Source of the DNA: Escherichia coli
Lineage (GTDB): Bacteria; Pseudomonadota; Gammaproteobacteria; Enterobacterales; Enterobacteriaceae
Length of the DNA stretch: 64,000 bases
Assembly (NCBI RefSeq): GCF_003018255.1
Contig: NZ_CP027440.1
Strand: one strand, 5' to 3'
Of this stretch, positions 1-16,617 are shown in pieces. Position 1 is the first letter of the stretch. The number at the start of each line of letters is the position of its first letter. The notes beneath the pieces are model-generated. The model made no database searches. It was not told the DNA's origin and worked only from the letters and a program-made list of their open reading frames with translations. The translations under genes and the position numbers were made by a program.

Positions 1-622
1 GCGATTTAAGCGCATCAACCACGCGGGCGCGCCACTCGATGGCAGCAGCCTGGTATTCAACGTCGGCATCGACACGGTCGAGCAGGCGTTCACCGCCCAG
101 TTCCGCCAGCTTACTGTCAAAATCTTTCCCGGACTGGCAGAAAAATTCATAAGAACTATCGCCGAGGCTAAACACGGCAAAAGCGGTATTTTCCAGCTTC
201 GGCGCTTTTTTGGAGAACAGGAACTTATGCAGCGCGACGGCTTCTTCCGGCGGCTCCCCTTCCCCTTGCGTTGACGTCACTACGATGAGCAGTTTTTCGC
301 TGGCGATTTGTTTGAATTTATAGTCGCCCGCGTTCACCAGCTTAACGTTCAGTTTTGCTGCTAATAAATCATCGCGTAATGCTTCAGCAACCCGGCGCGC
401 ATTGCCGGTTTGCGAGGCGGAGATAATAGTTATACCCGGCATTTCTGCGGCTGGCGCTGGCGTCGCTGCAAGCGCAGCAGGCTGCTGATTGAGTACGCCC
501 CAGAAATAGCCAGAAACCCAGGCAAGCTGGGTAGGAGTTAAATCGGTCGTGGCCGCCTGAAGGCGTGCCAGTTGCTCCGGGTTCAACGGAAGCAACGCGG
601 AAGGTGGGACCTGTGTCGTCAT
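1..622 (-). CDS. cysJ: Sulfite reductase [NADPH] flavoprotein alpha subunit, N-terminal part (gene continues beyond window start)
   Basis: Reverse-complement translation from the ATG at 622-620 reads [24 protein letters not shown]... with a flavodoxin-like domain, matching CysJ as I recall it; no stop codon before the window edge. Confidence 0.85.
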
Positions 623-937
623 GCGTCGTTATGTTCCAGTAAGCAAAGCTGTTTCTGCGCCCTGTCAGCGCCCATAAAACAGAAGAGGAGGTAAGGTTAA
701 CGGGGTGAACGGTGTGGATTAAAGACGGGATAGCGATAACTAATAACCAAATCGACTAACCTGTTTTAGCAATAGTCTTTAACAACAAAACAGATTAACC
801 AACCCAATGAAAAACAAATGAATTTAGCCAATCATTAAGATAAATCAGCGATTTTGCGCAACAAAGTCGTTTTAGATAATGCGAAAAAACAGCCTTTCCG
901 GTACTCTACGGCGGTTTTATCGTCCTGTAGAGAAATT

Positions 938-1303
938 ATGATGTCCACCACGTTATTTAAAGATTTCACCTTCGAAGCCGCTCACCGCTTACCACACGTC
1001 CCGGAAGGGCATAAATGTGGTCGCCTGCACGGGCATTCCTTTATGGTGCGACTGGAAATTACCGGGGAAGTCGATCCGCATACGGGCTGGATTATCGATT
1101 TCGCTGAACTGAAAGCGGCGTTTAAGCCAACCTACGAGCGCCTCGATCACTATTATCTCAATGATATTCCAGGTCTGGAAAACCCGACCAGCGAGGTTTT
1201 AGCAAAATGGATTTGGGATCAAGTTAAACCCGTTGTGCCGCTGTTAAGTGCGGTGATGGTAAAAGAAACCTGCACCGCAGGTTGCATCTATCGCGGCGAA
1301 TGA
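938..1303 (+). CDS. queD: 6-carboxy-5,6,7,8-tetrahydropterin synthase (queuosine biosynthesis)
   Basis: ORF 854..1303 trimmed to the internal start [35 protein letters not shown] (121 aa); Cys/His zinc motif typical of the QueD/PTPS family. Confidence 0.9.
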
Positions 1304-1380
1304 TAAGAGTGTGTCGGCGGTCAATTTCCCTTAAGTAACGCTATGTTAGGGTGTTGTGTTCTGGATATCTGGGGCATGAC

Positions 1381-2652
1381 ATGGAAGACGACTGCGACAT
1401 TATTATTATTGGTGCCGGTATTGCAGGCACCGCTTGCGCGTTACGCTGCGCGCGAGCGGGTTTATCCGTTTTGTTACTGGAACGCGCTGAAATCCCCGGC
1501 AGCAAAAATCTTTCCGGCGGGCGGTTATATACCCATGCACTCGCGGAACTCCTCCCTCAGTTTCACCTGACCGCGCCTCTTGAACGACGCATCACTCACG
1601 AAAGCCTTTCCCTGTTAACGCCGGATGGCGCAACGACGTTTTCCAGCTTACAGCCCGGCGGTGAATCCTGGAGTGTATTACGTGCACGGTTCGATCCGTG
1701 GCTGGTTGCCGAAGCCGAAAAAGAAGGTGTCGAATGCATCCCCGGTGCGACGGTGGATGCGCTGTATGAAGAAAACGGCAGGGTGTGTGGTGTCATTTGT
1801 GGTGACGATATTCTCCGCGCCCGTTATGTGGTGCTGGCAGAAGGTGCCAACAGCGTCCTGGCTGAACGTCACGGGTTAGTGACTCGTCCTGCTGGCGAAG
1901 CGATGGCGTTGGGGATCAAAGAAGTGCTGTCGCTGGAAACATCCGCTATTGAAGAACGTTTTCATCTGGAGAATAACGAAGGCGCAGCGTTGCTGTTCAG
2001 CGGCGGGATCTGTGATGACTTACCCGGCGGCGCATTTCTTTATACTAATCAACAAACGCTCTCGTTAGGGATTGTTTGCCCGCTCTCTTCCCTTACGCAA
2101 AGTCGTGTTCCGGCAAGCGAGCTGCTGGCTCGCTTTAAAACGCATCCGGCAGTGCGCCCGCTTATCAAAAACACGGAATCACTGGAGTATGGTGCGCATC
2201 TGGTGCCAGAAGGTGGCTTGCACAGTATGCCGGTGCAATACGCCGGTAACGGCTGGCTGCTGCTGGGCGATGCGTTGCGCAGTTGCGTCAATACCGGAAT
2301 TTCCGTGCGCGGCATGGATATGGCGCTGACTGGCACGCAGGCGGCGGCACAAACGCTGATAAGCGCCTGCCAGCACCGCGAGCCGCAAAATCTGTTTGCG
2401 CTTTATCATCACAACGTAGAGCGCAGCCTGCTATGGGATGTTCTACAACGTTATCAGCATGTTCCGGCGCTTTTGCAACGCCCTGGATGGTACCGTGCGT
2501 GGCCTGCGTTAATGCAGGATATTTCCCGCGATTTATGGGATCAGGGTGATAAACCTGTTCCACCGCTGCGCCAGTTATTCTGGCGTCATTTACGTCGTCA
2601 CGGCCTGTGGCATCTGGCGGGCGATGTTATCAGGAGTCTGCGATGTCTGTAA
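1381..2652 (+). CDS. ygcN: FAD-dependent oxidoreductase, FixC-like (ETF-quinone oxidoreductase family)
   Basis: ORF 1351..2652; GxGxxG dinucleotide fold IIIGAGIAGTACA near the N-terminus; position after queD as in K-12; start chosen at MEDDCDIIIIGAG. Confidence 0.85.
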   Translation: MEDDCDIIIIGAGIAGTACALRCARAGLSVLLLERAEIPGSKNLSGGRLYTHALAELLPQFHLTAPLERRITHESLSLLTPDGATTFSSLQPGGESWSVLRARFDPWLVAEAEKEGVECIPGATVDALYEENGRVCGVICGDDILRARYVVLAEGANSVLAERHGLVTRPAGEAMALGIKEVLSLETSAIEERFHLENNEGAALLFSGGICDDLPGGAFLYTNQQTLSLGIVCPLSSLTQSRVPASELLARFKTHPAVRPLIKNTESLEYGAHLVPEGGLHSMPVQYAGNGWLLLGDALRSCVNTGISVRGMDMALTGTQAAAQTLISACQHREPQNLFALYHHNVERSLLWDVLQRYQHVPALLQRPGWYRAWPALMQDISRDLWDQGDKPVPPLRQLFWRHLRRHGLWHLAGDVIRSLRCL

Positions 2653-2903
2653 CCCGTAATCTCTGGCGCGTTGCCGATGCGCCGCACATTGTACCGGCTG
2701 ACTCCGTTGAGCGTCAGACGGTACAACGGTTGATTAACGCTTGTCCGGCTGGTCTTTTTTCGCTCACACCGGAAGGTGACTTACGCGTTGATTATCGCGG
2801 CTGCCTGGAGTGTGGCACCTGCCGTTTGCTGTGCGATGAAAAAACACTACAACAGTGGCGCTATCCGCCTTCCGGATTCGGCATCACCTACCGTTTTGGA
2901 TAA
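2643..2903 (+). CDS. ygcO: Ferredoxin-like protein, FixX-like
   Basis: ORF 2607..2903 trimmed to MSVTRNLW; motif CLECGTCRLLC; overlaps the ygcN stop, suggesting translational coupling. Confidence 0.8.
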   Translation: MSVTRNLWRVADAPHIVPADSVERQTVQRLINACPAGLFSLTPEGDLRVDYRGCLECGTCRLLCDEKTLQQWRYPPSGFGITYRFG

Positions 2904-2919
2904 ATAATAAGGATAATTT

Positions 2920-3495
2920 ATGCCCCTCTTACACCTGCTCCGCCAGAATCCGGTGATTGCTGCCGTTAAAGATAATGCCAGCCTGCAACTGGCAATCGAC
3001 TCTGAATGCCAGTTTATTTCCGTGTTGTACGGCAATATCTGCACCATTAGTCAAATCGTTAAAAAGATTAAAAATGCCGGAAAATATGCTTTTATTCATG
3101 TTGATTTGCTGGAAGGCGCGTCAAATAAAGAAGTGGTGATTCAGTTTTTGAAACTGGTGACTGAGGCGGACGGCATTATCAGTACCAAAGCCTCAATGTT
3201 GAAAGCGGCAAGAGCGGAAGGTTTTTTCTGTATTCATCGCCTGTTTATTGTTGATTCGATTTCGTTTCACAACATTGATAAGCAAGTTGCGCAATCGAAT
3301 CCGGATTGTATTGAGATCCTGCCAGGCTGTATGCCTAAAGTGCTGGGCTGGGTGACGGAGAAAATCCGCCAACCGCTGATTGCCGGCGGGCTGGTGTGCG
3401 ATGAAGAAGATGCGCGTAATGCGATTAACGCGGGTGTTGTGGCGCTTTCCACCACGAATACCGGGGTCTGGACGTTAGCGAAAAAATTGCTTTGA
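2920..3495 (+). CDS. ygcP: GlpP-family (glycerol-3-phosphate responsive) antiterminator-like regulator
   Basis: 191-aa ORF with RBS ahead; size and position match K-12 ygcP. Confidence 0.8.
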   Translation: MPLLHLLRQNPVIAAVKDNASLQLAIDSECQFISVLYGNICTISQIVKKIKNAGKYAFIHVDLLEGASNKEVVIQFLKLVTEADGIISTKASMLKAARAEGFFCIHRLFIVDSISFHNIDKQVAQSNPDCIEILPGCMPKVLGWVTEKIRQPLIAGGLVCDEEDARNAINAGVVALSTTNTGVWTLAKKLL

Positions 3496-3560
3496 CGGGA
3501 TACTCGTAACGAGTTGAATTTGTGTGATTTGTAGGCTGCACGCCACATCCGACATTCAGC

Positions 3561-3592
3561 GCCTGATACGACGCTTGACGCGTCTTATCAGG
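3561..3592. repeat. REP-like imperfect palindrome between convergent ygcP and ygcQ
   Basis: gcctgatacgacgc-ttgac-gcgtcttatcaggc inverted repeat in a convergent intergenic gap. Confidence 0.5.
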
Positions 3593-3641
3593 CTTACAAG
3601 TCCCCAGCCCAGAACCGTAGGCAGGATCATCCGGCAGCACG

Positions 3642-4502
3642 TTATTGGCAATCTGCGTGAATGGTTGTCACCAGTGCCTCCAGCACCGCTTTCCAGTCAT
3701 CAACCACGCCAACATCTGCCTGTGAAAATACCGCCGCGCTGGCGTCATGATTAATCGCCACCACAAACTTGCTATTGCGTACGCCCGCCATTAACGCTGC
3801 TGCGCCGGAAGCGCCAACAACAATGCACACCTCAGGCGCCAGCAGATGTCCGGAAATACCAATCACTTTTTCAGCATCAACGCCACCGTTCATCACTCGC
3901 GCCCGACTGTAGCCCACTTCGGCTCCCAGCTTTTCTACCAGCATAGCGATTTCCTGGTTATCTGCCTCTCCGCCCTGCCCCACCACCAGCACCCGTCTGG
4001 CTTCAGCTAATGGATCGCGGGTAACATTTTTCAGGTTTTCTATGCTAATCAGCCAGTCGGGAAGCGCACCGGGGACAATGTTCAGTTGCAGCATACCAGA
4101 GGGCAACATGGTGTTTATCTCTGCTCCCGCCTGACGCGCCAGGGAAAGACATAGCGGGCGTTTTTCTGTTTGCAGCGTCGCCGTTAGCGCATTTCCCCAG
4201 TGGGATTTGCGCACGCTTACGGTTGGAATATCTAACGAAGTCACCTGGCAGATGCTTGCACCATGTAAACGCCAGGCCAGCCGGATCGACAGTTCATCGC
4301 CAAACGCGCCCGGAGGAAAAAGGACAACCTCCGCAGGCGTTCGTTGCCACTGTTCCACCAGCGCATCCAGCACCTGTTCCGCAACCATCGGCTGTGGTTC
4401 TATTTGCCAATGCGTTAGTGTGCTGCCGCTGAAATCCTGCGCCGCCAGCCAGCCCGCCATTGCGGCATGTTCCTGATTTATTGTCACAATTGCGATATTC
4501 AT
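3642..4502 (-). CDS. ygcQ: Electron transfer flavoprotein alpha-subunit-like (FixB-like)
   Basis: ORF 3642..4535 trimmed to MNIAIVTINQ (286 aa); ETF-alpha-like C-terminal region. Confidence 0.8.
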   Translation of the reverse strand: MNIAIVTINQEHAAMAGWLAAQDFSGSTLTHWQIEPQPMVAEQVLDALVEQWQRTPAEVVLFPPGAFGDELSIRLAWRLHGASICQVTSLDIPTVSVRKSHWGNALTATLQTEKRPLCLSLARQAGAEINTMLPSGMLQLNIVPGALPDWLISIENLKNVTRDPLAEARRVLVVGQGGEADNQEIAMLVEKLGAEVGYSRARVMNGGVDAEKVIGISGHLLAPEVCIVVGASGAAALMAGVRNSKFVVAINHDASAAVFSQADVGVVDDWKAVLEALVTTIHADCQ

Positions 4503-5278
4503 GGCTGCATCCTTTGGCGTAAATAGTCCTGCCATAGCTTTTGCGCTTTTTCTGCTACCGTTTGCCCATCAATCAGCGCCGCTCTGCGTCGTTGCTCTGG
4601 CCTTGCCAGTTGCAGGCACTGTATCGCTGGCGCTTCCGCGGCAACAGTTTCGCGGGTAATCTCCGCTTTCCCCGCTGCCATTCGCTGGCGCATTCCCGGT
4701 ACTGGCAAGGCCACTTCACCACACTGACGCACGGCAATCACCGCAGGCAAGCGAACCCGGCAACAGCGCAACCCATGTTCAGTACGCTGTTCGAGGGTGA
4801 TAAACGGCGCGTCGAGAGTAAAACGCTCCACCTGGGTGAAACAGGGCCAGCCCAGCATTTCCGCCAGCAAAAATGGCGTTTGTCCATTCTGCCCTTCGCT
4901 GCTTTGGCAGCCGGTAATGATCAGATCCAGCGGATTCTGACGCTGCCATTCGGCAATATGGCGAGCGACAAATTCCGGCGCAAAGCGCAGATCTGCCGCC
5001 GTCTCCAGCAATACAGCGTCCTCAAACCCAAGAGCCATGAGATAGCGCAGCCAGTGCAACGCCCGTTCATCCCCCATGCTCAACGCGGTTAAAGACATCG
5101 GCGTACCGTTTTTTCTCTGCGCCAACAGCAGCGCGGCGGCAGCCTGTTCATCGGCACCGAGTAAACTTCGCAGAAGCGAAACATCCGGTCCGATATTACC
5201 CTGAGCCGCCGCCTGCCACTCTTTTTCCGCCAGCATTCCGGCATCCGGTTCGGCTTTAAACGCTAACAGAATGTTCAT
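4499..5278 (-). CDS. ygcR: Electron transfer flavoprotein beta-subunit-like (FixA-like)
   Basis: ORF 4499..5284; ATG at 5278 preceded by AGGAGG (reverse complement of 5285-5290); reads MNILLAFKAEPDAG; stop overlaps the ygcQ start. Confidence 0.8.
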   Translation of the reverse strand: MNILLAFKAEPDAGMLAEKEWQAAAQGNIGPDVSLLRSLLGADEQAAAALLLAQRKNGTPMSLTALSMGDERALHWLRYLMALGFEDAVLLETAADLRFAPEFVARHIAEWQRQNPLDLIITGCQSSEGQNGQTPFLLAEMLGWPCFTQVERFTLDAPFITLEQRTEHGLRCCRVRLPAVIAVRQCGEVALPVPGMRQRMAAGKAEITRETVAAEAPAIQCLQLARPEQRRRAALIDGQTVAEKAQKLWQDYLRQRMQP

Positions 5279-6593
5279 TCGCACCTCCTACATTTCCCGC
5301 CGCCACCAGCGGGAGTGCTTTGGTTTCTGGTGCCCATAGCCAGGTCACAACAAAACCAACCAACAACACTACCGCCAGGAGCAATAAGGTGGCTTGCATT
5401 CCCCACTGCGCCAGCACCCACGGCAGCAGGCCAGTACTTACCGCCGCCCCCAACCGACTCATGGCGGTGGCAAAACCGACGCCCAGCGAGCGAATGTCAG
5501 TAGGAAAACTTTCCGCAGGCAAAATGCCCACCAGATTACTGACTGCCGAAATGGTGGTGCTGAAGAGAACAAAAAGCAGCAGCGTTAATGAACTGCCGGA
5601 AGGCAAACAGGCCATCACGACCAGCGTTGCCGCCAGCAGCAAAAAACTTCCCAGTAAAAATCTGCGATGCGCTAACAAGTGGGTCAACACTAACCCTAAT
5701 AACGCGCCAACAATTAACAACGCATTAAGCATCAGGCTGGCAGTCAGCGCATCTTCCAGACCAATAGTTTGGGCGATGGTCGGCAGCCAGGTATAAATCA
5801 CAAACCATGGGATTACGAGGCAGACAAAGAAGACGCTGTTAAACGCTGTGCGCCGCCAGTAGCGCGAAGAGAACAAGGTTTTGATGTGTTTATGGGTCGC
5901 CGTTGCCACTTCATCGCCCAGTAAAACATGGGGACCAAAATAGCGATGCACGATAGCGTGAGCTTCTGCAAAACGCCCCTGGCGCAGTAGCCAGCGTGGC
6001 GATTCTGGCGTTCCCCAGCGTAATAACGTAATCAACAATGCGGGCAGAGCTGCCGATGCCAGTAGCCAGCGCCAGGCCTCCGGGCTTTCGCTAATAAAGT
6101 GATGTCCGGCAATACTTGCCAGCACATAGCCTACGGTCCACACCACGCTGAATGCGCCCAGCAAAACACCGCGATGGCGGCGCGGAGAAAATTCAGCCAG
6201 CAAAGTGTGACCGACTGAGTAATCGCCTCCCAGACCAATGCCGATCAAAATGCGCAGTCCAATAAGATGCTCTGGCGTGGTGGCAAAAAATTGTAAGAAC
6301 GAAGCGAGCGTAATCAGCAAAAAGCTGAAGGTGAAGATTTTTTGCCGACCAATATGGTCGGAGATCCACCCCAAAACCAGGCTACCGATAAACAGGCCAA
6401 GTAGCGCCGAGCCGCCGATCATTCCCGCCATAAACGGCGTCAGTTGCATGGCGGGTGTAAGCTGAATAATGGCGTAACCAATGACGCCGAGGACATAACC
6501 GTCGGTCAGGTGTGCGCCGAAAGTGAGCGCAGCAATGCGGCAGTGAAAACGGTTAAGTGGTAAATCATCCATTCGCACCGGTGAAGTGTTCAT
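5256..6593 (-). CDS. ygcS: MFS-family transporter
   Basis: ORF 5256..6665 trimmed to MNTSPVRMDD (445 aa); many hydrophobic segments consistent with 12 TM helices. Confidence 0.8.
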   Translation of the reverse strand: MNTSPVRMDDLPLNRFHCRIAALTFGAHLTDGYVLGVIGYAIIQLTPAMQLTPFMAGMIGGSALLGLFIGSLVLGWISDHIGRQKIFTFSFLLITLASFLQFFATTPEHLIGLRILIGIGLGGDYSVGHTLLAEFSPRRHRGVLLGAFSVVWTVGYVLASIAGHHFISESPEAWRWLLASAALPALLITLLRWGTPESPRWLLRQGRFAEAHAIVHRYFGPHVLLGDEVATATHKHIKTLFSSRYWRRTAFNSVFFVCLVIPWFVIYTWLPTIAQTIGLEDALTASLMLNALLIVGALLGLVLTHLLAHRRFLLGSFLLLAATLVVMACLPSGSSLTLLLFVLFSTTISAVSNLVGILPAESFPTDIRSLGVGFATAMSRLGAAVSTGLLPWVLAQWGMQATLLLLAVVLLVGFVVTWLWAPETKALPLVAAGNVGGANEHSVSV

Positions 6594-6686
6594 CTTTACC
6601 CCTTCATTGTCCGGTAATAAGAACGGCTTCTCGCCTGAGAAGCCGAAAAGGCAACGCCCCGTCATCGCGGAACGCTGCCTGACACA

Positions 6687-8141
6687 TTATTTTTCAATCG
6701 GATAGATAGTACCCGTATTCATAATGCCGTTAGGATCGAACTGCTTTTTCAGCCCTTCCAGCAACGCCCACGCGCTGCCGTGTTCCAGTTTGCTCCAGTG
6801 AACGCGATGTTTACCGATACCGTGGTGGTGCACCATCGAACCACCGAGGCGAATGGTTTCTTCGCAGATGATTTTGTTGAGCGGATTGTGGTACTTGTCG
6901 ATTTCCTCTTCCGGCTTACAGTCAACGACGTTGTAGTCGTAGACGAAGTACATGTTGGTGCCGTTCTGATAGCTATGAGAGGAGTGACCGCCCAGCATGG
7001 TGATGTCGTCGGCATGCGGGAACTCGGTACGAATACGGTTAATAACGCTTTCGTAGATTTCGTGGATGCAGCTCCAGCAGCCGGACACTTCGGTGGTAAA
7101 GCCCATGTTGCCGGTTTTGAGGATCTGCACACGTTCAGCGGCCACTTTATCCGGCCCCCAGTTCAGGTGATTAAACCAGGTTTCGATCAGCTTGCTGTCC
7201 ACTCGCTGGCATTGCGGGTAACGTGCCACGATTTCAGCAATCCCTTCGCCTGTCGCCTTCGCAATGCGAGGGTTACCTTCAGCCATAAAGATCAGCACAC
7301 ATTTACCATCGGCAAAATGGGTGAAGTGTTGGGTGCCATCTTCAGCGTCATACAAACGAGCGATCGACGGACGATACCCTTCCACCATGATTTCACGCAG
7401 GATGTTGAAGCCGGTTTTCATGTCTTCCAGCACATAGCCATAGAAGAGATTGTTTTCCGGCGTAAATTTGAAGATTTTCACTGTGACTTCAGTGATATAG
7501 CACAATGCACCTTCGTTGCCGATGATAATGTGACGAATGTCCGGGCCTGCCGCGCGGCGTGGTACGTTTTTAATACGTGTGACGGTGCCATCAGCCAATA
7601 CTGCTTCCAGACCAACGACCATATCTTCGATTGCGCCGTAGAGTGTGGAGAACTGCCCGATACTGCGGGTTGCTACCAGGCCGCCCATCTGCGCCAGCGG
7701 TTTTGATTGCGGTGAATGCCCCGTGGTGTAACCTTTTTCACGCAACGTGTTTTCCAGCACCTCCAGCGGAACACCACATTGCGCCGTGACCTGCATATTC
7801 TCAATATCAATATTAATGATTTGATTCATGGCAGAGCCGTCGAGCACCACCGAGTTTTCCACAACGGTTTCCAGTCCACCCTCGGTAGCGGAAGCACCGG
7901 TACGCGGCACACCGTTAATTTTGTGTGCATTCATAAAATTCAGTACACGAGAGACTTGTTCTGTGGAACCGAGTTTTACGACCGCTGCCGGAATCGGCAA
8001 AGTATAAATGCCATGAATATCCGGAAATTTGCGAAAACGGTCAATACTGTTTTTCTTTAATACTGTTTCATCGGTAATTACGCGATCTGCACCAACAATT
8101 TCCTTTAGCTGGTCGACAATCGCTGCGCGAGATAAAGACAT
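6687..8141 (-). CDS. ygcU: FAD-linked oxidase (alkyl-DHAP synthase / D-lactate dehydrogenase-like fold)
   Basis: 484-aa ORF; FAD-binding PCMH-type features; K-12 position. Confidence 0.8.
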   Translation of the reverse strand: MSLSRAAIVDQLKEIVGADRVITDETVLKKNSIDRFRKFPDIHGIYTLPIPAAVVKLGSTEQVSRVLNFMNAHKINGVPRTGASATEGGLETVVENSVVLDGSAMNQIINIDIENMQVTAQCGVPLEVLENTLREKGYTTGHSPQSKPLAQMGGLVATRSIGQFSTLYGAIEDMVVGLEAVLADGTVTRIKNVPRRAAGPDIRHIIIGNEGALCYITEVTVKIFKFTPENNLFYGYVLEDMKTGFNILREIMVEGYRPSIARLYDAEDGTQHFTHFADGKCVLIFMAEGNPRIAKATGEGIAEIVARYPQCQRVDSKLIETWFNHLNWGPDKVAAERVQILKTGNMGFTTEVSGCWSCIHEIYESVINRIRTEFPHADDITMLGGHSSHSYQNGTNMYFVYDYNVVDCKPEEEIDKYHNPLNKIICEETIRLGGSMVHHHGIGKHRVHWSKLEHGSAWALLEGLKKQFDPNGIMNTGTIYPIEK

Positions 8142-8210
8142 AGTAATTCCTTCCTGATAATAAAAATGGAATAATCATTAATAAGAGAAAACAGAAACCA
8201 CCGTTATGGA

Positions 8211-8996
8211 TTAGCGCACTAAATAACCGCCATCGACCACTAATAAATGCCCGTTGACATAATTCGATGCCTGACTTGCGAGAAACACGGCTGCGCCCAT
8301 TAAATCCTGAGTATCGCCCCAACGGTTTGCCGGAATATGATCAAGAACGCGCTGATTGGTTTCTGGATTACTGCGTGTCGCCAGCGTAATATCTGTTGCA
8401 TAATAGCCAGGGGCAATACCATTTACCTGAATATTATATTGACCTAGTTCATCACAATAAGCTTTGGTGAACCCGGCAAGAGCATGTTTAGTGGCAGAAT
8501 ATGCAGGTGACCATTGTCCACCTAAGTAAGAGAACAATGAACAGATATTAATAATTTTACCGCTTTTCTGCGGGATCATAATTTTTGCCGCTTCATAGCT
8601 TAACTCGAATGCGGCGGTCAGGTTCACATCAATCATCGGGTCCCAGTCGGCACGACCGAAATCCAGCACCTTATTCAGCTTACAAATACCGGCATTGTTA
8701 ACCAGAATATCAACTGTTCCGAAACGCTCACAGCAAGCAGCGATAATCTTCTGCGGCGCGCCTTCTGCGGTGATATCCACCTGCATGAAGTCCATCTCAA
8801 CACCCTGTTTTTCAATCATTTCCTTTGTTTTGCCGTTATCTTTAACGAAGCTTGGAATAAAGATATTTGCACCAGCTTTGGCCAGCGCCATGGCAAATGC
8901 CTGGCCTAAACCGCTATTCCCGCCGGTAACAATTGCGGTTTTACCTTTCAGGGAGAAAAAATCCATTGAGAACGCATTGAGAGATTCGATTGACAT
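8211..8996 (-). CDS. ygcW: Short-chain dehydrogenase/reductase (SDR) family oxidoreductase
   Basis: ORF 8211..9071 trimmed to MSIESLNAF; TGGNSGLGQAFA Rossmann motif and YxxxK catalytic motif (YSATKHA). Confidence 0.8.
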   Translation of the reverse strand: MSIESLNAFSMDFFSLKGKTAIVTGGNSGLGQAFAMALAKAGANIFIPSFVKDNGKTKEMIEKQGVEMDFMQVDITAEGAPQKIIAACCERFGTVDILVNNAGICKLNKVLDFGRADWDPMIDVNLTAAFELSYEAAKIMIPQKSGKIINICSLFSYLGGQWSPAYSATKHALAGFTKAYCDELGQYNIQVNGIAPGYYATDITLATRSNPETNQRVLDHIPANRWGDTQDLMGAAVFLASQASNYVNGHLLVVDGGYLVR

Positions 8997-9314
8997 AGTT
9001 AGCTCCAATTTCCGTAAGGCAAAAAAAAAGAAAGGTAACTTCCCCCGCGAGAGGGAAGTTACCTTTCTCATTATCTCTGGTAACTGGAGATAATTTTTAT
9101 CATAAGGGCATAATCGCTAATGTGATCGTAATCACAGTGTTATATTCGAATTGTCAAATAATTTTAAAAAGCAGAAGCGTGATTACTCTCACACAACACC
9201 ACTGCTTTCCATGTTATTTCTTATTGCAATTACTAGAGACCTGAGAAAAGTAATCCACCTGAAAGGGCGGCTTACTTTTCTCTTTTTTTTGTCTATTACA
9301 AATGGGAATACGAT

Positions 9315-10592
9315 ATGCAACACAACTCATATCGCCGTTGGATAACCCTCGCGATAATTAGTTTTAGCGGCGGCGTTAGTTTCGATCTGGCTTATTTACG
9401 TTATATTTATCAAATTCCCATGGCGAAATTTATGGGATTCAGCAATACCGAGATAGGTTTAATAATGAGTACCTTTGGTATTGCGGCTATTATTCTTTAT
9501 GCCCCCAGCGGCGTTATTGCCGATAAATTTTCACACCGCAAAATGATTACTTCCGCGATGATCATTACCGGATTACTGGGTCTGTTAATGGCAACATATC
9601 CACCGCTGTGGGTAATGCTCTGTATTCAGGTCGCCTTTGCGATAACGACGATTTTAATGCTGTGGTCGGTGTCGATTAAAGCCGCCTCATTGCTGGGCGA
9701 TCATAGTGAGCAAGGGAAAATTATGGGCTGGATGGAAGGGCTGCGCGGCGTCGGTGTAATGTCGCTGGCGGTGTTTACCATGTGGGTCTTTTCTCGCTTT
9801 GCGCCGGATGACAGCGCCAGCCTGAAAACAGTCATTATTATCTACAGTGTGGTTTACATCTTGTTGGGGATTCTGTGCTGGTTTTTTGTTAGCGATAACA
9901 ACAACCTGCGCAGTACCAATAACGAAGAAAAACAGTCATTCCAGCTTAGCGATATCCTGGCCGTTTTGCGTATCAGTACCACCTGGTATTGCAGCATGGT
10001 GATTTTTGGTGTCTTCACCATCTACGCCATTCTGAGTTACTCCACCAACTATCTGACCGAAATGTACGGCATGTCGCTGGTGGCGGCGAGCTACATGGGG
10101 ATTGTGATCAACAAAATCTTCCGCGCGCTGTGCGGCCCACTTGGCGGCATTATCACCACCTACAGTAAAGTGAAATCCCCTACCCGCGTGATCCAAATCC
10201 TTTCCGTACTCGGCCTGCTGGCGTTAACTGCCCTGCTCGTCACGAACTCTAACCCGCAATCGGTCGCGATGGGGATTGGCCTGATTTTACTGCTGGGATT
10301 CACCTGTTACGCCTCACGCGGGCTGTACTGGGCCTGCCCAGGCGAAGCGAGAACACCGTCTTACATTATGGGCACCACGGTAGGTATTTGTTCGGTGATT
10401 GGATTCCTGCCGGATGTCTTCGTTTACCCAATTATCGGCCACTGGCAAGACACCCTGCCCGCAGCAGAAGCCTACCGCAATATGTGGCTGATGGGCATGG
10501 CGGCGCTTGGCATGGTGATTGTCTTTACCTTTTTGCTGTTCCAAAAAATTCGTACTGCTGATAGCGCCCCCGCAATGGCTAGCAGCAAGTAA
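9315..10592 (+). CDS. yqcE: MFS-family transporter
   Basis: 425-aa hydrophobic ORF; AT-rich codon usage compared with flanking genes. Confidence 0.8.
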   Translation: MQHNSYRRWITLAIISFSGGVSFDLAYLRYIYQIPMAKFMGFSNTEIGLIMSTFGIAAIILYAPSGVIADKFSHRKMITSAMIITGLLGLLMATYPPLWVMLCIQVAFAITTILMLWSVSIKAASLLGDHSEQGKIMGWMEGLRGVGVMSLAVFTMWVFSRFAPDDSASLKTVIIIYSVVYILLGILCWFFVSDNNNLRSTNNEEKQSFQLSDILAVLRISTTWYCSMVIFGVFTIYAILSYSTNYLTEMYGMSLVAASYMGIVINKIFRALCGPLGGIITTYSKVKSPTRVIQILSVLGLLALTALLVTNSNPQSVAMGIGLILLLGFTCYASRGLYWACPGEARTPSYIMGTTVGICSVIGFLPDVFVYPIIGHWQDTLPAAEAYRNMWLMGMAALGMVIVFTFLLFQKIRTADSAPAMASSK

Positions 10593-10618
10593 GCCAGGAA
10601 AATTACAGGAGAAAAATC

Positions 10619-12097
10619 ATGTCGAAAAAATACATCATAGGGATTGATGGCGGAAGTCAGAGCACAAAAGTGGTGATGTACGATCTGGAAGGTAATGTGG
10701 TTTGCGAAGGTAAAGGCTTATTGCAGCCGATGCATACGCCAGATGCCGATACTGCCGAACATCCTGACGACGATTTATGGACATCGTTATGCTTTGCCGG
10801 TCACGATTTGATGAGCCAGTTTGCCGGAAATAAAGAAGATATTGTCGGTATTGGTCTGGGCTCCATCCGTTGCTGTCGTGCGTTATTGAAAGCCGATGGC
10901 ACGCCCGCTGCGCCATTGATTAGCTGGCAGGATGCACGTGTAACACGTCCCTACGATCATACCAATCCAGATGTGGCCTATGTCACCTCTTTTTCGGGTT
11001 ATCTGACGCATCGCTTAACCGGCGAGTTTAAAGATAATATCGCCAACTATTTTGGTCAGTGGCCGGTGGATTATAAGAGCTGGACATGGAGTGAAGATGC
11101 TGCGGTAATGGATAAGTTTAATATCCCCCGTCATATGCTGTTTGATGTGCAAATGCCTGGCACCATTCTTGGGCATATCACACCACAAGCTGCGCTGGCG
11201 ACACATTTCCCGGCTGGGCTGTCGGTTGTTTGTACCACCAGTGATAAACCGGTAGAAGCTCTGGGAGCCGGGTTACTGGATGATGAAACTGCGGTAATTT
11301 CTCTTGGCACTTACATCGCATTGATGATGAACGGCAAAGCCTTGCCGAAAGATCCGGTGGCGTACTGGCCGATTATGTCTTCTATTCCGCAAACATTGCT
11401 GTATGAAGGTTACGGTATTCGCAAAGGCATGTGGACGGTGAGCTGGCTGCGCGACATGTTAGGCGAGTCGTTAATTCAGGATGCCAGGGCGCAGGATCTT
11501 TCACCGGAAGATTTACTCAACAAGAAAGCCTCTAGTGTGCCACCTGGCTGTAATGGGCTGATGACGGTGCTGGACTGGCTGACCAATCCGTGGGAACCGT
11601 ACAAACGCGGGATTATGATCGGCTTTGATTCCAGTATGGATTACGCATGGATATATCGTTCGATACTGGAAAGCGTGGCGCTGACGCTGAAGAACAATTA
11701 CGACAATATGTGTAATGAAATGAATCACTTTGCGAAGCATGTAATCATTACTGGCGGCGGTTCGAACAGCGATCTGTTTATGCAGATTTTTGCCGACGTG
11801 TTCAACCTTCCGGCACGACGTAACGCCATTAACGGTTGTGCAAGTCTGGGGGCAGCGATTAATACCGCGGTAGGTCTGGGGCTATACCCGGATTACGCAA
11901 CGGCTGTCGACAAAATGATTCGCGTGAAAGATATCTTTATACCGATTGAGAGCAATGCCAAACGCTACGACGCGATGAATAAAGGCATTTTCAAAGACCT
12001 AACCAAACATACTGATGTGATCCTGAAAAAATCGTATGAAGTGATGCATGGGGAATTGGGGAATGCGGATTCGATCCAGAGCTGGTCGAATGCGTAA
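10619..12097 (+). CDS. ygcE: FGGY-family carbohydrate kinase
   Basis: 492-aa ORF with N-terminal IGIDGGSQSTKVVMYD sugar-kinase signature; RBS aggagaaaaatc ATG. Confidence 0.85.
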   Translation: MSKKYIIGIDGGSQSTKVVMYDLEGNVVCEGKGLLQPMHTPDADTAEHPDDDLWTSLCFAGHDLMSQFAGNKEDIVGIGLGSIRCCRALLKADGTPAAPLISWQDARVTRPYDHTNPDVAYVTSFSGYLTHRLTGEFKDNIANYFGQWPVDYKSWTWSEDAAVMDKFNIPRHMLFDVQMPGTILGHITPQAALATHFPAGLSVVCTTSDKPVEALGAGLLDDETAVISLGTYIALMMNGKALPKDPVAYWPIMSSIPQTLLYEGYGIRKGMWTVSWLRDMLGESLIQDARAQDLSPEDLLNKKASSVPPGCNGLMTVLDWLTNPWEPYKRGIMIGFDSSMDYAWIYRSILESVALTLKNNYDNMCNEMNHFAKHVIITGGGSNSDLFMQIFADVFNLPARRNAINGCASLGAAINTAVGLGLYPDYATAVDKMIRVKDIFIPIESNAKRYDAMNKGIFKDLTKHTDVILKKSYEVMHGELGNADSIQSWSNA

Positions 12098-12142
12098 GTG
12101 AGGAAGGCCGGGCGGGAAACTGCCCGGCCTGAACATACCTGA

Positions 12143-12281
12143 ATGGTTATCCCCGCTGACGCGGGGAACATAAGTTCGACAACTTAAAAAATGATAACAA
12201 GTCCGGTTTATCCCCGCTGATGCAGGGAACATAATAAAAACTTTAACTAGTTCGGTTTATCCCTGTTTTTACAAGGAATAT
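12143..12281 (-). CRISPR. Decayed type I-E CRISPR remnant (3 degenerate repeats, 2 spacers)
   Basis: Repeat-like units at about 12143-12171, 12204-12232 and 12253-12281 (for example cggtttatccccgctgatgcagggaacat), progressively diverged from the consensus. Confidence 0.7.
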
Positions 12282-12735
12282 TAACTACACTCGATGTCTT
12301 TAGAATAAAAGACAATACGAATCGTACTTTATCAATTTTCATTTAAAGTATGAACTGGATATCTTTATTCATAAGAACAATTCATCAACAGCGTATAGAG
12401 GCGGTTATGTAAAACCGCTCATTAGCCTCAAAACAAAGACAAATTTCCAGATTTATTACTTAATCAATGAATAACAAGCTTAAAAAATACACTGTAATTC
12501 TAAAGAAAAAATTAACAGGCATTAATTCAATATTAAAAAAATAATAGATTAAAATTTCTTAACGATTTAAGTATCATACAAATAACACTTTGATTAAATT
12601 TAATTTTTTGTATCGATAATTGTGAACTTCTCTGGCATGGAGAACTATTTTGAACATGAGGTGTTACGTGGATATGTTGCTTATTACAAGTACAGCTAAT
12701 ATAAAAACTTGAGAAAGAGATAACGGGTTATATGG

Positions 12736-13069
12736 TGGTTTATCCCCGCAGGCGCGGGGAACTCATAGAGAAAAGAAACGGCAGCTTTGCCACTTCCGGT
12801 TTATCCCCGCTGGCGCGGGGAACTCCGCGTTTCTAATCTCACCGCCACGGCGATCAACGGTTTATCCCCGCTGGCGCGGGGAACTCACCCCTTTAACGTC
12901 ACCAGACCGCTAACGACGCGGTTTATCCCCGCTGGCGCGGGGAACTCGCGTAACCATTTTGATGGCGCTACCGAAATGGCGGTTTATCCCCGCTGGCGCG
13001 GGGAACTCGATCAACGGCCTGGCGGCTGCCTCTGAAATCTCGGTTTATCCCCGCTGGCGCGGGGAACTC
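12736..13069 (-). CRISPR. Type I-E CRISPR array, 6 repeats and 5 spacers of 32 nt
   Basis: 29-nt repeat cggtttatccccgctggcgcggggaactc (reverse complement of the E. coli I-E repeat) at 12736, 12797, 12858, 12919, 12980 and 13041; spacers at 12765-12796, 12826-12857, 12887-12918, 12948-12979 and 13009-13040. Confidence 0.95.
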
Positions 13070-13250
13070 TCTAAACATAACCTATTATTAATTAATGATT
13101 TTTTAAGCCAGTCACAATCTACCAACTTTACAGTATCACACAAACAACACATCCATTATGTTAAAGAGCACTTAATCCATTGATTAAAAAGCTAAATATT
13201 TAAAATAACTCTATACAAACTAAAATCTACCAAACTTCGCCGCAATAATT
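13070..13250 (-). promoter_or_regulatory. AT-rich CRISPR leader on the queE-proximal side of the array
   Basis: Low-GC sequence directly abutting the terminal consensus repeat in crRNA orientation. Confidence 0.6.
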
Positions 13251-13408
13251 TTCACTCCAGCGAAAAATTAACGCCACAGAATTTGTAGAGAATGATAATG
13301 ATTAGTCCGGGATGGGCAAGATGGATGAGTTTTCAGAGGCGACAAACAATATAAATGAGTAGAAGTCTTTACAGGTTCCACCCATTTATAACGCTTATAA
13401 ATGTTTAA

Positions 13409-14080
13409 TCAGGCAATATTTAGATATTTATGTGTTTGCATCGACAAACGCCAATTACGCGCAATGCAGGTTTCAATGCACAAACGTGTGGCATCATCCT
13501 TTTGGCTAATCGGCTGCAGTGCAATGACTCGCGGTTTATCATCGGTCAGCGTTGCCAGTAGTTCATCCAGTGCTTCAATATCACGTACGCGCCCCACTGG
13601 ATGCTTGATTTCGTTGGCTCGCTCCAGTGCCTGTGACAACACTTCATAGCCGCCGCGCATGTTCAGCTTTGGTGATACGGTAACCCAGGTATTCGGTGTG
13701 CAGCGTACCTCATGAGTACCACTGGTTTCAATCTGGCAGCTAAAACCATTCTTTTCGAGCAGATCAGTCAGTGGTAGCAAATCATGAATGCAAGGCTCAC
13801 CACCCGTAATCACCACATGCCGCGCGGTGTATCCCTGGCGACCAATGACAGCCAGCAAGTCTTCACTGCTCGCCGCCCCCCACTTATCACTCTCTTTGGT
13901 CTTCGCCAGAATGCTGAAAAGGGAGACTTCCCGATCCTCAAGCTTTTCCCAGGTGTGTTTGGTGTCGCACCAGGCACAGCCAACCGGGCATCCCTGTAAA
14001 CGAATAAAAATGGCGGGGACGCCGGTAAAGTAACCCTCACCTTGCAGGGTCTGGAACATCTCGTTAATCGGGTACTGCAT
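13409..14080 (-). CDS. queE: 7-carboxy-7-deazaguanine synthase (radical SAM)
   Basis: 223 aa, MQYPINEMFQTLQGEGYFTGVPAIFIRLQGCPVGCAWCDTK with the CxxxCxxC-type radical SAM cluster motif. Confidence 0.9.
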   Translation of the reverse strand: MQYPINEMFQTLQGEGYFTGVPAIFIRLQGCPVGCAWCDTKHTWEKLEDREVSLFSILAKTKESDKWGAASSEDLLAVIGRQGYTARHVVITGGEPCIHDLLPLTDLLEKNGFSCQIETSGTHEVRCTPNTWVTVSPKLNMRGGYEVLSQALERANEIKHPVGRVRDIEALDELLATLTDDKPRVIALQPISQKDDATRLCIETCIARNWRLSMQTHKYLNIA

Positions 14081-14374
14081 AGCATTCTCTGTGAAGTGGA
14101 TAATTGTTAATTATTGCAGATCCTGCCACAACAATCATGTCTTATTAACATTCTGTTACAGGCAGGTTTAAAGAAAAATGAGAAACAGATCGTTAATAAT
14201 AAAAGGGAGTAACGTATTATGTCAGAAATAAATAAAGTAAAGGGATTTAATCATGTCAAAAACATTCACCAAAATTATACTTATTTTTTTCTGTGTTCGT
14301 TTTTAATTATAACGAATCTCAAATTACCGATGCCGCCGTCAATTTATTTATCCAGCTTTAATGGGACATTTATA

Positions 14375-15244
14375 ATGCGCTATTTCATACTAATATTCAC
14401 ATTCGTGTGTTCCTTTGTTGCAGCCCAACCAACTATTGTCCCACAATTACAGCAACAAGTTACGGATCTTACGAGTAGCTTAAACTCACAAGAAAAGAAA
14501 GAACTGACGCGGAAGTTAGAATCTATTTTCAATAATACCCAAGTACAAATTGCTGTATTAATTATTCCCACAACCAAAGACGAGACAATTGAACAATATG
14601 CTACAAGGGTTTTTAACAATTGGCGTTTAGGAGATGCCAAACGCAATGATGGGATACTGATCATTGTTGCCTGGTCGGATCGCACTGTCCGCATCCAGGT
14701 AGGTTATGGGCTGGAAGAAAAGGTAACCGATGCTCTGGCTGGAGATATCATCCGTAGCAACATGATACCCGCATTTAAACAACAAAAATTAGCTAAGGGA
14801 TTAGAGTTAGCTATAATCGCTTTGAATAACCAACTCACTTCACAACACCAATATTCGGCTAATCCTTCAGAAAGTGAATCAGCGTCTTCCAGCGATCATT
14901 ACTACTTTGCTATTTTTTGGGTATTTGCAGTGATGTTCTTCCCTTTCTGGTTTTTTCATCAAGGCAGTAATTTTTGTCGCGCATGTAAAAGCAGTGTCTG
15001 TATTTCAGCAATCTATCTTTTAGATTTATTCCTGTTCTCCGATAAAACTTTTTCCATTGCTGTATTTTCCTTCTTTTTTACTTTCACCATATTTATGGTC
15101 TTTACCTGTTTATGTGTACTTCAGAAAAGAGCATCAGGTAGAAGTTATCATTCAGACAACAGCGGTTCCGCTGGAGGCTCAGGCGGCGGGTTTAGCGGCG
15201 GTGGCGGTTCTTCTGGCGGTGGCGGCGCATCCGGCCGCTGGTAA
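14375..15244 (+). CDS. ygcG: TPM-domain membrane protein with glycine-rich C-terminal tail
   Basis: ORF 14219..15244 trimmed to [19 protein letters not shown] (signal-peptide-like); internal TM segments; tail [26 protein letters not shown]. Confidence 0.75.
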
Positions 15245-15303
15245 CTCAACCATAAAAAACGCCAGCCCGAAGGCTGGCATTTTTAAATCAGATAAAGTCA
15301 GGC

Positions 15304-16617
<1,314 letters not shown>

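Follow-up and report, generated by a model that had tools for sequence, protein, structure and literature searches.

The ygc cluster of Escherichia coli: an alkyl-DHAP-synthase-like flavoenzyme, twin leader RNAs and a proposed inducible catabolic route

A 64,000-nucleotide stretch of the Escherichia coli contig NZ_CP027440.1 (assembly GCF_003018255.1; hereafter the window) carries the ygc cluster, consisting of the genes ygcN, ygcO, ygcP, ygcQ, ygcR, ygcS, ygcU, ygcW, yqcE and ygcE. Analysis of this gene set shows an active site of the alkyldihydroxyacetonephosphate synthase (ADPS) type in the flavoenzyme YgcU, a core of genes shared across phyla, twin leader RNA switches and a CRP site. We propose that the cluster serves the inducible catabolism of a small hydrophilic compound with a glycerol-like diol end and a C1 substituent, X, in which YgcU would cleave the C1-X bond and YgcP and CRP would exert control. 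This overall reading is tentative, and we hold it with slightly less than even confidence. New here are the apparent ADPS-like nature of YgcU, a mobile core of short-chain dehydrogenase/reductase (SDR), kinase, YgcU and GlpP-like regulator together with its link to quaternary-amine transport and demethylation, and a conserved but unannotated leader switch. The last of these was absent from an earlier interpretation of the window made without database searches (the sequence-only reading), which had placed the ten genes at 1381-12097; the open reading frame (ORF) listing and genome alignment agree with these coordinates and find all ten intact.

The 318-bp region between the divergent genes ygcW and yqcE (8997-9314) holds the two leaders. 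The ygcW leader RNA (9017..9097, minus strand) has an antiterminator box, AGUUACC, at 9085..9079, then AGAG (9078..9075) and a 19-bp terminator stem (9069..9028) with the loop UCGC and a U-run to 9021; the terminator ends about 25-30 nt before the ygcW ATG. The yqcE leader RNA (9216..9293, plus strand) has the box AAUUACU (9228-9234), AGAG (9235-9238) and a terminator stem (9243-9282) followed by a U8 run (9283-9290), 24 nt before the yqcE ATG. Fold z-scores are -6.5 and -3.5, and covariance-model scores 91.2 and 68.8 bits, for the ygcW and yqcE leaders, respectively. The hairpins have the 5' arm GAGAAARGUAA in common, the boxes (AGUUACC-AGAG and AAUUACU-AGAG) are complementary to the middle of this arm, and U-runs are found only on the sense strands. 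Central between the two leaders is a near-consensus CRP site, TGTGAtcgtaaTCACA (9121..9136), with an in vitro Kd of about 1.7 nM (PMC12871828; see also PMC1794230), and yqcE-ygcE is reported to be activated by Crp (PMC8085971). One of the 318 positions differs from the nearest genome, compared with 1-3% in the flanking genes, which indicates strong constraint on this non-coding region.

The SDR genes of Halobacillus, Geosporobacter, Dethiosulfatibacter, Sporomusa, Photobacterium and others are preceded by the same leader layout. A covariance model was built on the terminator stem alone, the antiterminator helix being excluded from it. With this model, 111 copies of the motif were identified across phyla at E < 5e-6 in 1.59 Mb, 40 instances preceding yqcE genes, and exactly two true matches were found in the 64-kb window. 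Thirteen of the 19 pairs in the terminator stem show double changes, in an alignment that is itself fitted to the stem. The antiterminator helix, in which the upstream box pairs over 7 bp with the terminator's 5' arm, is paired in 93.8% of alignment cells, against 7-56% when the partner columns are slid. Three of its pairs carry compensatory changes, with G-C/A-U swaps (67 versus 37 sequences) at one pair and U-A/C-G swaps (76 versus 25) at another, where the nucleotide also covaries with its partner in the terminator, a pattern to be expected of two helices that exclude each other. The motif co-occurs with a GlpP-like gene: both are present in 53 loci and neither in 24, the motif alone in seven (several of them truncated) and the gene alone in two, which are artefacts of the filter. 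A single copy of the yqcE leader is present in each of 5063 among the 5426 complete E. coli genomes, and no RefSeq feature is annotated under it in any of these 5063. Rfam has no family covering the leaders and returned two weak, unrelated matches only. Searches with the motif and the covariance model found no copy upstream of ygcN, and hence no third regulated operon. A metagenome scan with exact 16-mers from the motif gave 120 stretches, of which 80 were tested; four passed the covariance model, all with an architecture already seen.

The leader pair would give YgcP (2920..3495, plus strand) a concrete target. YgcP matches PF04309 (G3P_antiterm) over its full length (210.6 bits, 1.4e-62) and the GlpP structure 3kts (E 8.5e-28), and is assigned to the GlpP family of RNA-binding antiterminators; we propose it as the sensor of a phosphorylated pathway intermediate. 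In our model, cAMP-CRP at the one central site would activate two predicted divergent promoters, each transcript would meet its leader terminator, and YgcP together with a phosphorylated intermediate resembling glycerol 3-phosphate (G3P) would stabilise the antiterminator helix, resulting in read-through. We regard this combination of CRP control and YgcP antitermination at the twin leaders as probable, RNA binding by YgcP and its G3P dependence being predicted from its family. The closest parallel is GlpP of Bacillus subtilis, which acts in a G3P-dependent manner on the glpD, glpFK and glpTQ leaders, and whose targets are laid out as promoter, GlpP site and terminator in the 5' untranslated region (5'-UTR) (PMC9604022). 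Judged by this described layout, the ygc leaders likewise consist of promoter, protein-binding region and intrinsic terminator, a GlpP-family protein is present in both systems, and both have catabolite control layered on top, by CcpA in B. subtilis and by CRP here. The ygc system differs in its Gram-negative host, in targets that are not glycerol genes, in a ligand that is presumably an analogue of G3P, and in a motif with an explicit covarying antiterminator helix that falls outside any Rfam family.

The same region bears on the suggestion that the cluster is a cryptic or decaying island acquired horizontally, in which the hairpins would be ordinary bidirectional terminators or palindromes of the repetitive extragenic palindromic (REP) type without a regulatory role. 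We consider this very improbable. It can appeal to the AT-richness of ygcW and the intergenic region, to the open-access literature, in which no phenotype was found, and to the ygcW leader stem, a near-perfect palindrome with a weak score on the opposite strand (38 bits). However, the hairpins lie between divergent promoters and start codons, where there is no upstream gene to terminate, and their U-runs stand on the sense strands only. The motif and its covarying antiterminator box are also kept from E. coli to Halobacillus, Sporomusa and Clostridia, tracking the GlpP-like gene, and the intergenic region is almost invariant, as described above. The genes themselves contain no internal stops, and against 152 nucleotide changes relative to the nearest complete E. 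coli genome there are just 27 amino-acid changes, from which we conclude that purifying selection maintains the cluster and that it is not decaying. At least 80% of it is found in one place in 5060 of the 5426 complete genomes (93%), the best nucleotide identity over the cluster being 98.6%.

YgcU (6687..8141, minus strand) had been described in the sequence-only reading as an FAD-linked oxidase. Its Pfam domains, PF01565 (FAD_binding_4) and PF02913 (FAD-oxidase_C), agree that it is a flavoenzyme of the vanillyl-alcohol oxidase (VAO) type, but the label hides an active site of the ADPS type, not of the GlcD/LctD type. The best solved relatives of the family profile are the ADPSs (7e-57); 9qgz, a D-lactate dehydrogenase deposited as “glycolate oxidase”, follows at 2e-36 and LctD at 3.5e-26. 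ADPS residues R419, Y578 and the His615-617 HHH loop (guinea-pig numbering) align to YgcU R262, Y398 and H438-H440, which are invariant in 12 diverse family members and which, with S388, make up the listed active-site residues. The ADPS mutant entries R419H and Y578F (4bc7 and 4bca) differ from wild type at exactly the aligned columns, and therefore the register of the alignment is fixed. The sequence MVHHHGIGK of YgcU takes the place of (G/T)EHG(I/V)G in LctD and in a second flavoenzyme linked to the cluster in anaerobes, and the EHG metal/carboxylate site of LctD, LDHD and GlcD was not found in YgcU by alignment. On the NCBIfam GlcD equivalog model YgcU scores 142.6 bits against a cut-off of 567.9. 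Assignment as a GlcD/LctD-type hydroxyacid dehydrogenase was rejected on the HHH loop standing in place of EHG and on the retention of the ADPS Arg and Tyr. No family in NCBIfam release 20 is specific to YgcU or to YgcE. With 484 residues, YgcU is shorter than ADPS (584-658), and the alignment of the two begins only at residue 180 of the guinea-pig or 137 of the Dictyostelium enzyme. Since it lacks the ADPS N-terminal region it is not filed as an ADPS, and is classified from its alignment as ADPS-like in the active site only.

In the ADPS reaction, the C1 proton of a dihydroxyacetone phosphate (DHAP) ester is removed and an adduct with flavin N5 is formed, after which a new substituent replaces the one that leaves C1 (PMC3509576). 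The ygc system shares with ADPS (AGPS) the VAO-type FAD fold and equivalents of Arg419, Tyr578 and His615-617, and an SDR partner that interconverts the DHAP derivative and the G3P derivative (PMC7517302). The proposed ygc route would use the same three-carbon chemistry in the catabolic direction. It differs in that lipid substrates would be unexpected for YgcU, whose context is one of small-solute transporters, and in the coupling to an electron-transfer flavoprotein (ETF), which implies net redox chemistry where ADPS is redox-neutral (PMC3509576).

A comparison of genomic context, which the sequence-only reading had suggested as a check, enabled the identification of a core set of genes. A scan that took a single genome for each species identified at least 553 YgcU relatives, of which 80 loci were kept and six added from contig look-ups; companion genes were counted, after clustering of ORFs, over the 85 loci that have YgcU. 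The most frequent companions are an SDR (80 loci), an FGGY kinase (72), the ETF alpha and beta subunits (63-64) and a GlpP-like regulator (56), followed by YqcE-like (47), YgcS-like (41) and FixC-like proteins (35, all in Enterobacterales). The conserved core across phyla is thus SDR, YgcU, FGGY kinase and GlpP-like regulator. The loci can be grouped into four architectures: (a) those of Escherichia, Citrobacter and Enterobacter-like genomes, at the site between cysJ-queD and queE-eno, with ETF and FixCX; (b) those of Erwiniaceae and Serratia, without ETF or FixCX, where ygcS is cotranscribed with a homologue of Fae, an aldo-keto reductase (AKR) of the YghZ/YdjG type and an aldehyde dehydrogenase resembling succinate-semialdehyde dehydrogenase; (c) those of aerobic halophilic bacilli, with the GlpP-like regulator, SDR, FGGY kinase, YgcU and a transporter of the betaine/choline/carnitine (BCCT) or OpuA type, without ETF; and (d) those of strict anaerobes, with SDR, YgcU, ETF beta and alpha, a second flavoenzyme of the LctD type, FGGY kinase and often MttB-family methyltransferases. 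ETF is found in anaerobes and facultative species, and is missing from the aerobic bacilli, SAR324 and the Erwiniaceae/Serratia variant.

The YgcW proteins of E. coli and of Firmicutes or Desulfobacterota are 64-81% identical and the YgcU proteins 66-76%, the ETF subunits only 26-37%; YgcU of Sporomusa, Alkalihalobacillus, Photobacterium and Desulfobacula is 71-73% identical to that of E. coli. From such identities the catalytic core appears either horizontally mobile or extremely constrained. The low identity of the ETF subunits, where YgcU is at about 70%, suggests that ETF was recruited separately, as an electron outlet for hosts unable to use oxygen. The Fae homologue and AKR adjoin the core in SAR324 as well as in Erwiniaceae, which hints at aldehyde or formaldehyde chemistry. 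Genuine homologues of the formaldehyde-activating enzyme Fae, above the TIGR03126 cut-off, lie beside the cluster in four Erwiniaceae-type loci (L037, L042, L051 and L052, one of them labelled Enterobacter cancerogenus) and in SAR324 (L053), organisms that are not expected to have tetrahydromethanopterin. In one locus (L007, 349-5317; GCA_900089805), three paralogous genes run divergently from the main cluster; they encode an ADPS-like flavoenzyme of 561 aa that shares 29% identity with YgcU and keeps Arg, Tyr and HHH, an FGGY kinase and a homologue of GlpD-like G3P dehydrogenase. By analogy, this trio supports an order of kinase, C2 oxidation and ADPS-like step.

Genes outside the core suggest the nature of X, probably a betaine-type group or N-methylated amine. 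A BCCT, OpuA-type betaine ABC transporter or MttB-family gene is found, within the stretches covered, in 26 of 40 non-Enterobacterales loci, and in 21 of 25 of those that are at least 15 kb long. The leader motif lies directly upstream of a BCCT gene five times, and of an ABC permease and an MttB gene once each; because the leader RNA is so placed, these BCCT and MttB genes are not chance neighbours of the core. MttB relatives that do not contain pyrrolysine act on quaternary amines (glycine betaine, proline betaine and carnitine, for instance), from which they remove methyl groups. The MttB homologues here have their full length and show no internal stop in the ORF calls; the trimethylamine-specific model gives them scores under its cut-off. 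The cluster-linked BCCTs form a subfamily of their own (loci L002-L004, L053, L056, L066-L073, L078 and L083), with the transmembrane helix 8 motif WT(T/V)FYW(S/A/C)NW compared with the canonical WTVFFWAWW, one Trp of the aromatic box being replaced by Asn. The substrate class of “a sugar or polyol” given by the sequence-only reading is therefore too broad: that the cluster is an inducible catabolic one with ETF and a FixCX-type module stands, while the proportion of long loci adjoining BCCT, OpuA or MttB points to an N-methylated or cationic glycerol-like compound. For E. coli itself, an N-methylated amine as X is possible but on balance doubtful, its one basis being the high identity of the core enzymes to those of the BCCT/OpuA/MttB loci.

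The remaining enzymes and transporters of the E. coli cluster were compared with curated families. YgcW (8211..8996, minus strand), an SDR resembling KduD and gluconate 5-dehydrogenases and the first gene product of its operon, scores 348.9 bits against a cut-off of 369 on one KduD model and 275.5 against 338.85 on another (NCBIfam), and on these scores would be termed KduD-like, not a KduD equivalog. YgcE (10619..12097, plus strand) has both FGGY domains (PF00370, 64.9 bits, N-terminal; PF02782, 80.5 bits, C-terminal) and is xylulokinase-like, its nearest solved relative being the autoinducer-2 kinase LsrK; no NCBIfam equivalog model reached its cut-off, the best scores being XylB (141 bits) and LsrK (135 bits). 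YqcE (9315..10592, plus strand), a major facilitator superfamily (MFS) transporter cotranscribed with ygcE, matches the D-galactonate transporter family weakly. YgcS (5256..6665, minus strand) is an MFS transporter of the sugar-porter, aromatic-acid-symporter or NiaP-like type. Its score for the aromatic-acid symporter family (183 bits) exceeds that for TIGR00898 (135 bits; NCBIfam), and for this reason a role as organic-cation transporter was rejected and not used as evidence. YqcE is present in 43 and YgcS in 40 of 44 Enterobacterales loci, and YgcS in none of the 40 others. Published observations define no function for these proteins: YgcS overexpression helps production of nicotinamide mononucleotide from nicotinamide (PMC8601175), ygcU is induced 1.69-fold by D-serine in enterohaemorrhagic E. 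coli, and YgcE rises under furfural or inhibitor stress.

The electron-transfer module is made up of YgcN, YgcO, YgcQ and YgcR. YgcN (1381..2652, plus strand), a FixC-like FAD oxidoreductase and proposed ETF:quinone oxidoreductase, matches the ubiquinone-binding domain of such enzymes (PF21162, 30.6 bits; cut-off 27.7). Its scores on two FixC-subfamily models (380 and 365.6 bits) are below the curated cut-offs (466 and 610), and it would therefore be FixC-like without being a FixC equivalog. YgcO (2643..2903, plus strand) is a FixX-like ferredoxin, scoring 82.5 bits on the FixX model (cut-off 166) and carrying the Cys motif CPAG...CLECGTCRLLC. YgcQ (3642..4502, minus strand), the ETF alpha subunit, has an ETF_alpha match of 61 bits and an ETF N-terminal domain barely at threshold (26.8 against 26.7), with no stretch passing alone; on the FixB and YdiR equivalog models, from which it is divergent, it scores 61-68 bits against cut-offs of 528-549. 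YgcR (4499..5278, minus strand), the ETF beta subunit, matches the ETF domain with 62 bits. YgcQ and YgcR thus appear to be a divergent ETF lineage. Pfam and NCBIfam searches uphold the domain calls of the sequence-only reading throughout (FixC/FixX-like, ETF alpha and beta, GlpP-like, two MFS, SDR and FGGY), and its term “FixABCX-like” seems fair as a description of architecture, with no orthology to FixB and FixA implied. Its inclusion of the ETF module in the pathway holds for E. coli, with its ETF and FixCX, and less so elsewhere, where ETF is accessory and FixCX confined to Enterobacterales.

The same four parts, ETF alpha, ETF beta, a FixC-like flavoprotein and a FixX-like ferredoxin, are found in E. 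coli FixABCX, which has a role in carnitine reduction, and in YdiQRST, associated with acyl-CoA. YgcQ and YgcR are only distant kin of FixB/FixA and YdiR/YdiQ; the ygc partner enzyme is a VAO/ADPS-type flavoenzyme where theirs is an acyl-CoA dehydrogenase, and the ygc halves are split over separate, convergent operons. LctBCD/EtfAB of Acetobacterium woodii (7qh2) resembles ygc in having the gene for a VAO-family flavin dehydrogenase beside those for ETF beta and alpha. In the anaerobe loci, however, it is the second flavoenzyme and not YgcU that is LctD-type: this LctD-like enzyme, with its EHG site, follows YgcU and ETF in 20 loci, and YgcU, which has no EHG site, is only 20% identical to it. 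The E. coli cluster has no LctD-like gene, but has FixCX-type partners. Five anaerobe and Photobacterium loci (L004, L066, L068, L071 and L086) have two ETF pairs, of which the second comes after the LctD-type flavoenzyme and is similar to the lactate dehydrogenase complex LctBCD. The second EtfA of Photobacterium (L004) carries a ferredoxin-like domain at its N terminus, seen as a faint Fer4_7 match.

In the proposed pathway, the compound would be imported by YqcE and/or YgcS. YgcE would phosphorylate the terminal CH2OH, and YgcW would oxidise the secondary alcohol that adjoins this end group, as CH2OH or CH2OP, the order of the two steps being left free, to give a 1-substituted, DHAP-like ketose phosphate, X-CH2-CO-CH2-OP. 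YgcU would then break the C1-X bond by the carbanion and flavin-N5 chemistry that ADPS performs at C1. The step would most likely be a net two-electron oxidation, yielding X-H and a 2-oxoaldehyde at the triose-phosphate level or DHAP; net oxidation is favoured because ETF is present where oxygen is unusable and aldehyde-handling enzymes where ETF is absent. Electrons would pass from YgcU to the ETF YgcR/YgcQ, on to the FixC/FixX-like YgcN/YgcO, and into the quinone pool. The route would amount to the ADPS and alkyl-DHAP reductase steps of ether-lipid synthesis (PMC7517302), run backwards. Formation of a ketose phosphate followed by ADPS-like chemistry, drawn by analogy, is a plausible suggestion that we hold with rather less than full conviction and somewhat short of even expectation. 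Erythritol catabolism, in which EryA is an FGGY kinase and EryB a GlpD-like dehydrogenase, has in common with it the logic of polyol to polyol phosphate to ketose phosphate; the ygc core differs in having an SDR and not a GlpD-like enzyme, in being without the EryC/H/I isomerases, and in the added ADPS-like step.

Electrons might instead flow in the reductive direction. YgcNO and YgcQR would then bring low-potential electrons from quinol or NADH to YgcU, which would remove X from X-CH2-CO-CH2-OP to give X-H and hydroxyacetone phosphate, as an anaerobic electron sink or a lactate-level route; the model follows E. coli proposals that couple FixABCX to carnitine and YdiQRST to YdiO. The FixC/FixX-type partners in Enterobacterales and the restriction of ETF to anaerobes and facultative species are compatible with it, as are the 20 anaerobe loci in which an LctD-like D-2-hydroxyacid dehydrogenase, in some cases accompanied by an ETF pair of its own and an EtfA with a ferredoxin domain, would suit a lactate-level product. 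However, the aerobic bacilli, SAR324 and the Erwiniaceae/Serratia variant have the same core but no ETF, and so no electron donor for a reductase; CRP activation suggests catabolism of a carbon source, and the aldehyde-handling neighbours fit an oxidised product better. We consider reductive flow improbable.

Several observations weigh against the proposed cleavage pathway and its link to quaternary amines. YgcU does not have the N-terminal domain and extension of ADPS, and its counterpart of Dictyostelium ADPS R447 is ambiguous in the alignment. AlphaFold2, given a shallow alignment of 12 sequences, modelled YgcU with low confidence (pLDDT 68), and with this model Foldseek places ADPS first (1e-25) only narrowly ahead of D-lactate dehydrogenases (4e-23); because the model is poor, the active-site reading rests on sequence alignment. 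ADPS is redox-neutral (PMC3509576), so that strict analogy leaves the need for ETF unexplained, and the ETF of anaerobes could serve the adjacent LctD-like enzyme instead. The E. coli cluster has no aldolase or isomerase to show the fate of the carbon, and the promoters and transcription start sites of ygcW and yqcE are predicted ones. No BCCT, OpuA or MttB gene was found in any of the 44 Enterobacterales loci, which have YqcE and YgcS instead, and the nearest families of these E. coli MFS transporters carry sugar acids or aromatic acids; a group other than a quaternary amine may therefore be X in E. coli.

Some of these points also speak for an ordinary sugar, polyol or sugar-acid route, in which YqcE would import an acidic sugar, YgcW oxidise it and YgcE phosphorylate it, and YgcU would be a plain alcohol, hydroxyacid or polyol-phosphate dehydrogenase, GlpD- or LctD-like, passing electrons to ETF and then quinone. 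Such a route, YgcU's part in it included, is a serious but on the whole unlikely alternative. YgcW falls just below the KduD cut-off and resembles gluconate 5-dehydrogenases, YqcE weakly matches D-galactonate transporters, Foldseek barely parts ADPS from D-lactate dehydrogenase, LctD with EtfAB (7qh2) is a solved precedent for a VAO-type dehydrogenase with ETF, and Enterobacterales loci are without betaine-type transporters. On the other hand, YgcU has HHHGIG in place of the EHG site and keeps the ADPS Arg and Tyr, the same SDR and YgcU (about 70-80% identical) occur in BCCT/OpuA loci with MttB in the regulon, and the core is not accompanied by a conserved aldolase or dehydratase of the kind usual in sugar-acid routes.

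For the C1-X cleavage pathway, four candidate substrates were considered and rejected. Glycerophosphocholine, carnitine, choline and 2,3-dihydroxypropane-1-sulfonate each leave at least one conserved component unexplained, the failures being that no phosphodiesterase is present, that there is no primary alcohol for the FGGY kinase, or that there is no N-methyl group. No substrate assignment was found in the open-access literature or in curated resources, in keeping with the sequence-only reading, which had called the substrate not established and named a published assignment as what would overturn its view. Open-access literature on ADPS with ETF and FGGY, MttB with FGGY and BCCT, GlpP-like regulators, dihydroxypropyl-trimethylammonium and homoserine betaine gave nothing relevant.

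The ygc genes are a long-standing gap in function in E. coli, kept by 93% of complete genomes. What had been a “sugar cluster” now has an RNA switch with candidate YgcP and G3P-analogue ligands, an ADPS-like hypothesis and N-methylated or ether-linked glycerol candidates, all of which are directly testable. It is conceivable, although we think it rather unlikely, that YgcU and its relatives are the catabolic counterpart of the ether-lipid synthase, a new enzyme class, accompanied by a new cross-phylum riboregulator of the GlpP type. If the proposal is true, flavin-N5 carbanion chemistry on 1-substituted DHAP would cleave a C-O or C-N bond that is otherwise stable, and a rare flavin mechanism would be put to a new, catabolic use. 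Glyceryl ethers or amines, such as (2,3-dihydroxypropyl)ammonium compounds or the deacylated head groups of betaine lipids, would in this way release an N-methylated amine or betaine. This would be a widespread, horizontally mobile route joining osmolyte and methylamine cycling to triose phosphate. In gut, marine and hypersaline bacteria it would provide quaternary amines with a new sink, with a bearing on methylamine and trimethylamine cycling. E. coli would gain an ETF-to-quinone branch of respiration and a previously unrecognised, protein-dependent antitermination system, whose terminator/antiterminator pair would be portable for synthetic biology, like B. subtilis GlpP/PglpD.

The ten genes fall into three transcription units: ygcN-ygcO-ygcP (plus strand, 1381-3495), ygcW-ygcU-ygcS-ygcR-ygcQ (minus strand, 8996 to 3642) and yqcE-ygcE (plus strand, 9315-12097). 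In the ORF listing, stops and starts overlap at ygcN/ygcO (10 nt), ygcR/ygcQ (4 nt) and ygcS/ygcR, an arrangement that fits translational coupling. GC content is 45.3% in ygcW (44% at third codon positions, GC3), 36% in the ygcW/yqcE intergenic region, 49.5% in yqcE (GC3 61%) and 48.5% in ygcE, compared with 50.9% for the whole cluster and 51.0% for the window. The AT-richness that had been noted for yqcE to ygcW thus holds for ygcW and the intergenic region, but not for yqcE. GC content was rejected as evidence of the horizontal origin formerly drawn from it, being weak and low only in ygcW and the regulatory region; the cross-phylum identities of YgcW (64-81%) and YgcU (66-76%) are better evidence.

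Two loci assigned to distant taxa, a Planctomycetota metagenome-assembled genome (L008) and Chryseobacterium sp. 18061 (L031), have ygc clusters of the Enterobacteriaceae type, with YgcU 99% and 88% identical and the Enterobacteriaceae form of the leader; these are probably contamination or mis-binning in public assemblies. Over positions 1-16000 of the window the best identity is 98.0% over 16 kb, most of the 5426 E. coli genomes lying at 95-99%. The window differs from K-12 and from every sequenced complete E. coli genome, and is probably derived from a divergent lineage of Escherichia. A REP-like palindromic element is present in the convergent ygcP/ygcQ gap (3512-3594), with a weak match to naRNA4 (29.5 bits; gathering score 59.5). 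From the ORFs and alignment to annotated E. coli genomes, the cluster is flanked by queD on one side, and on the other by a CRISPR array and then queE. The repeat of this array, which lies between ygcE and queE at 12797-13077, is type I-E-like (CGGTTTATCCCCGCTGGCGCGGGGAAC) and present in about five copies at a period of 61; the array is annotated as CRISPR in the closest E. coli genome.

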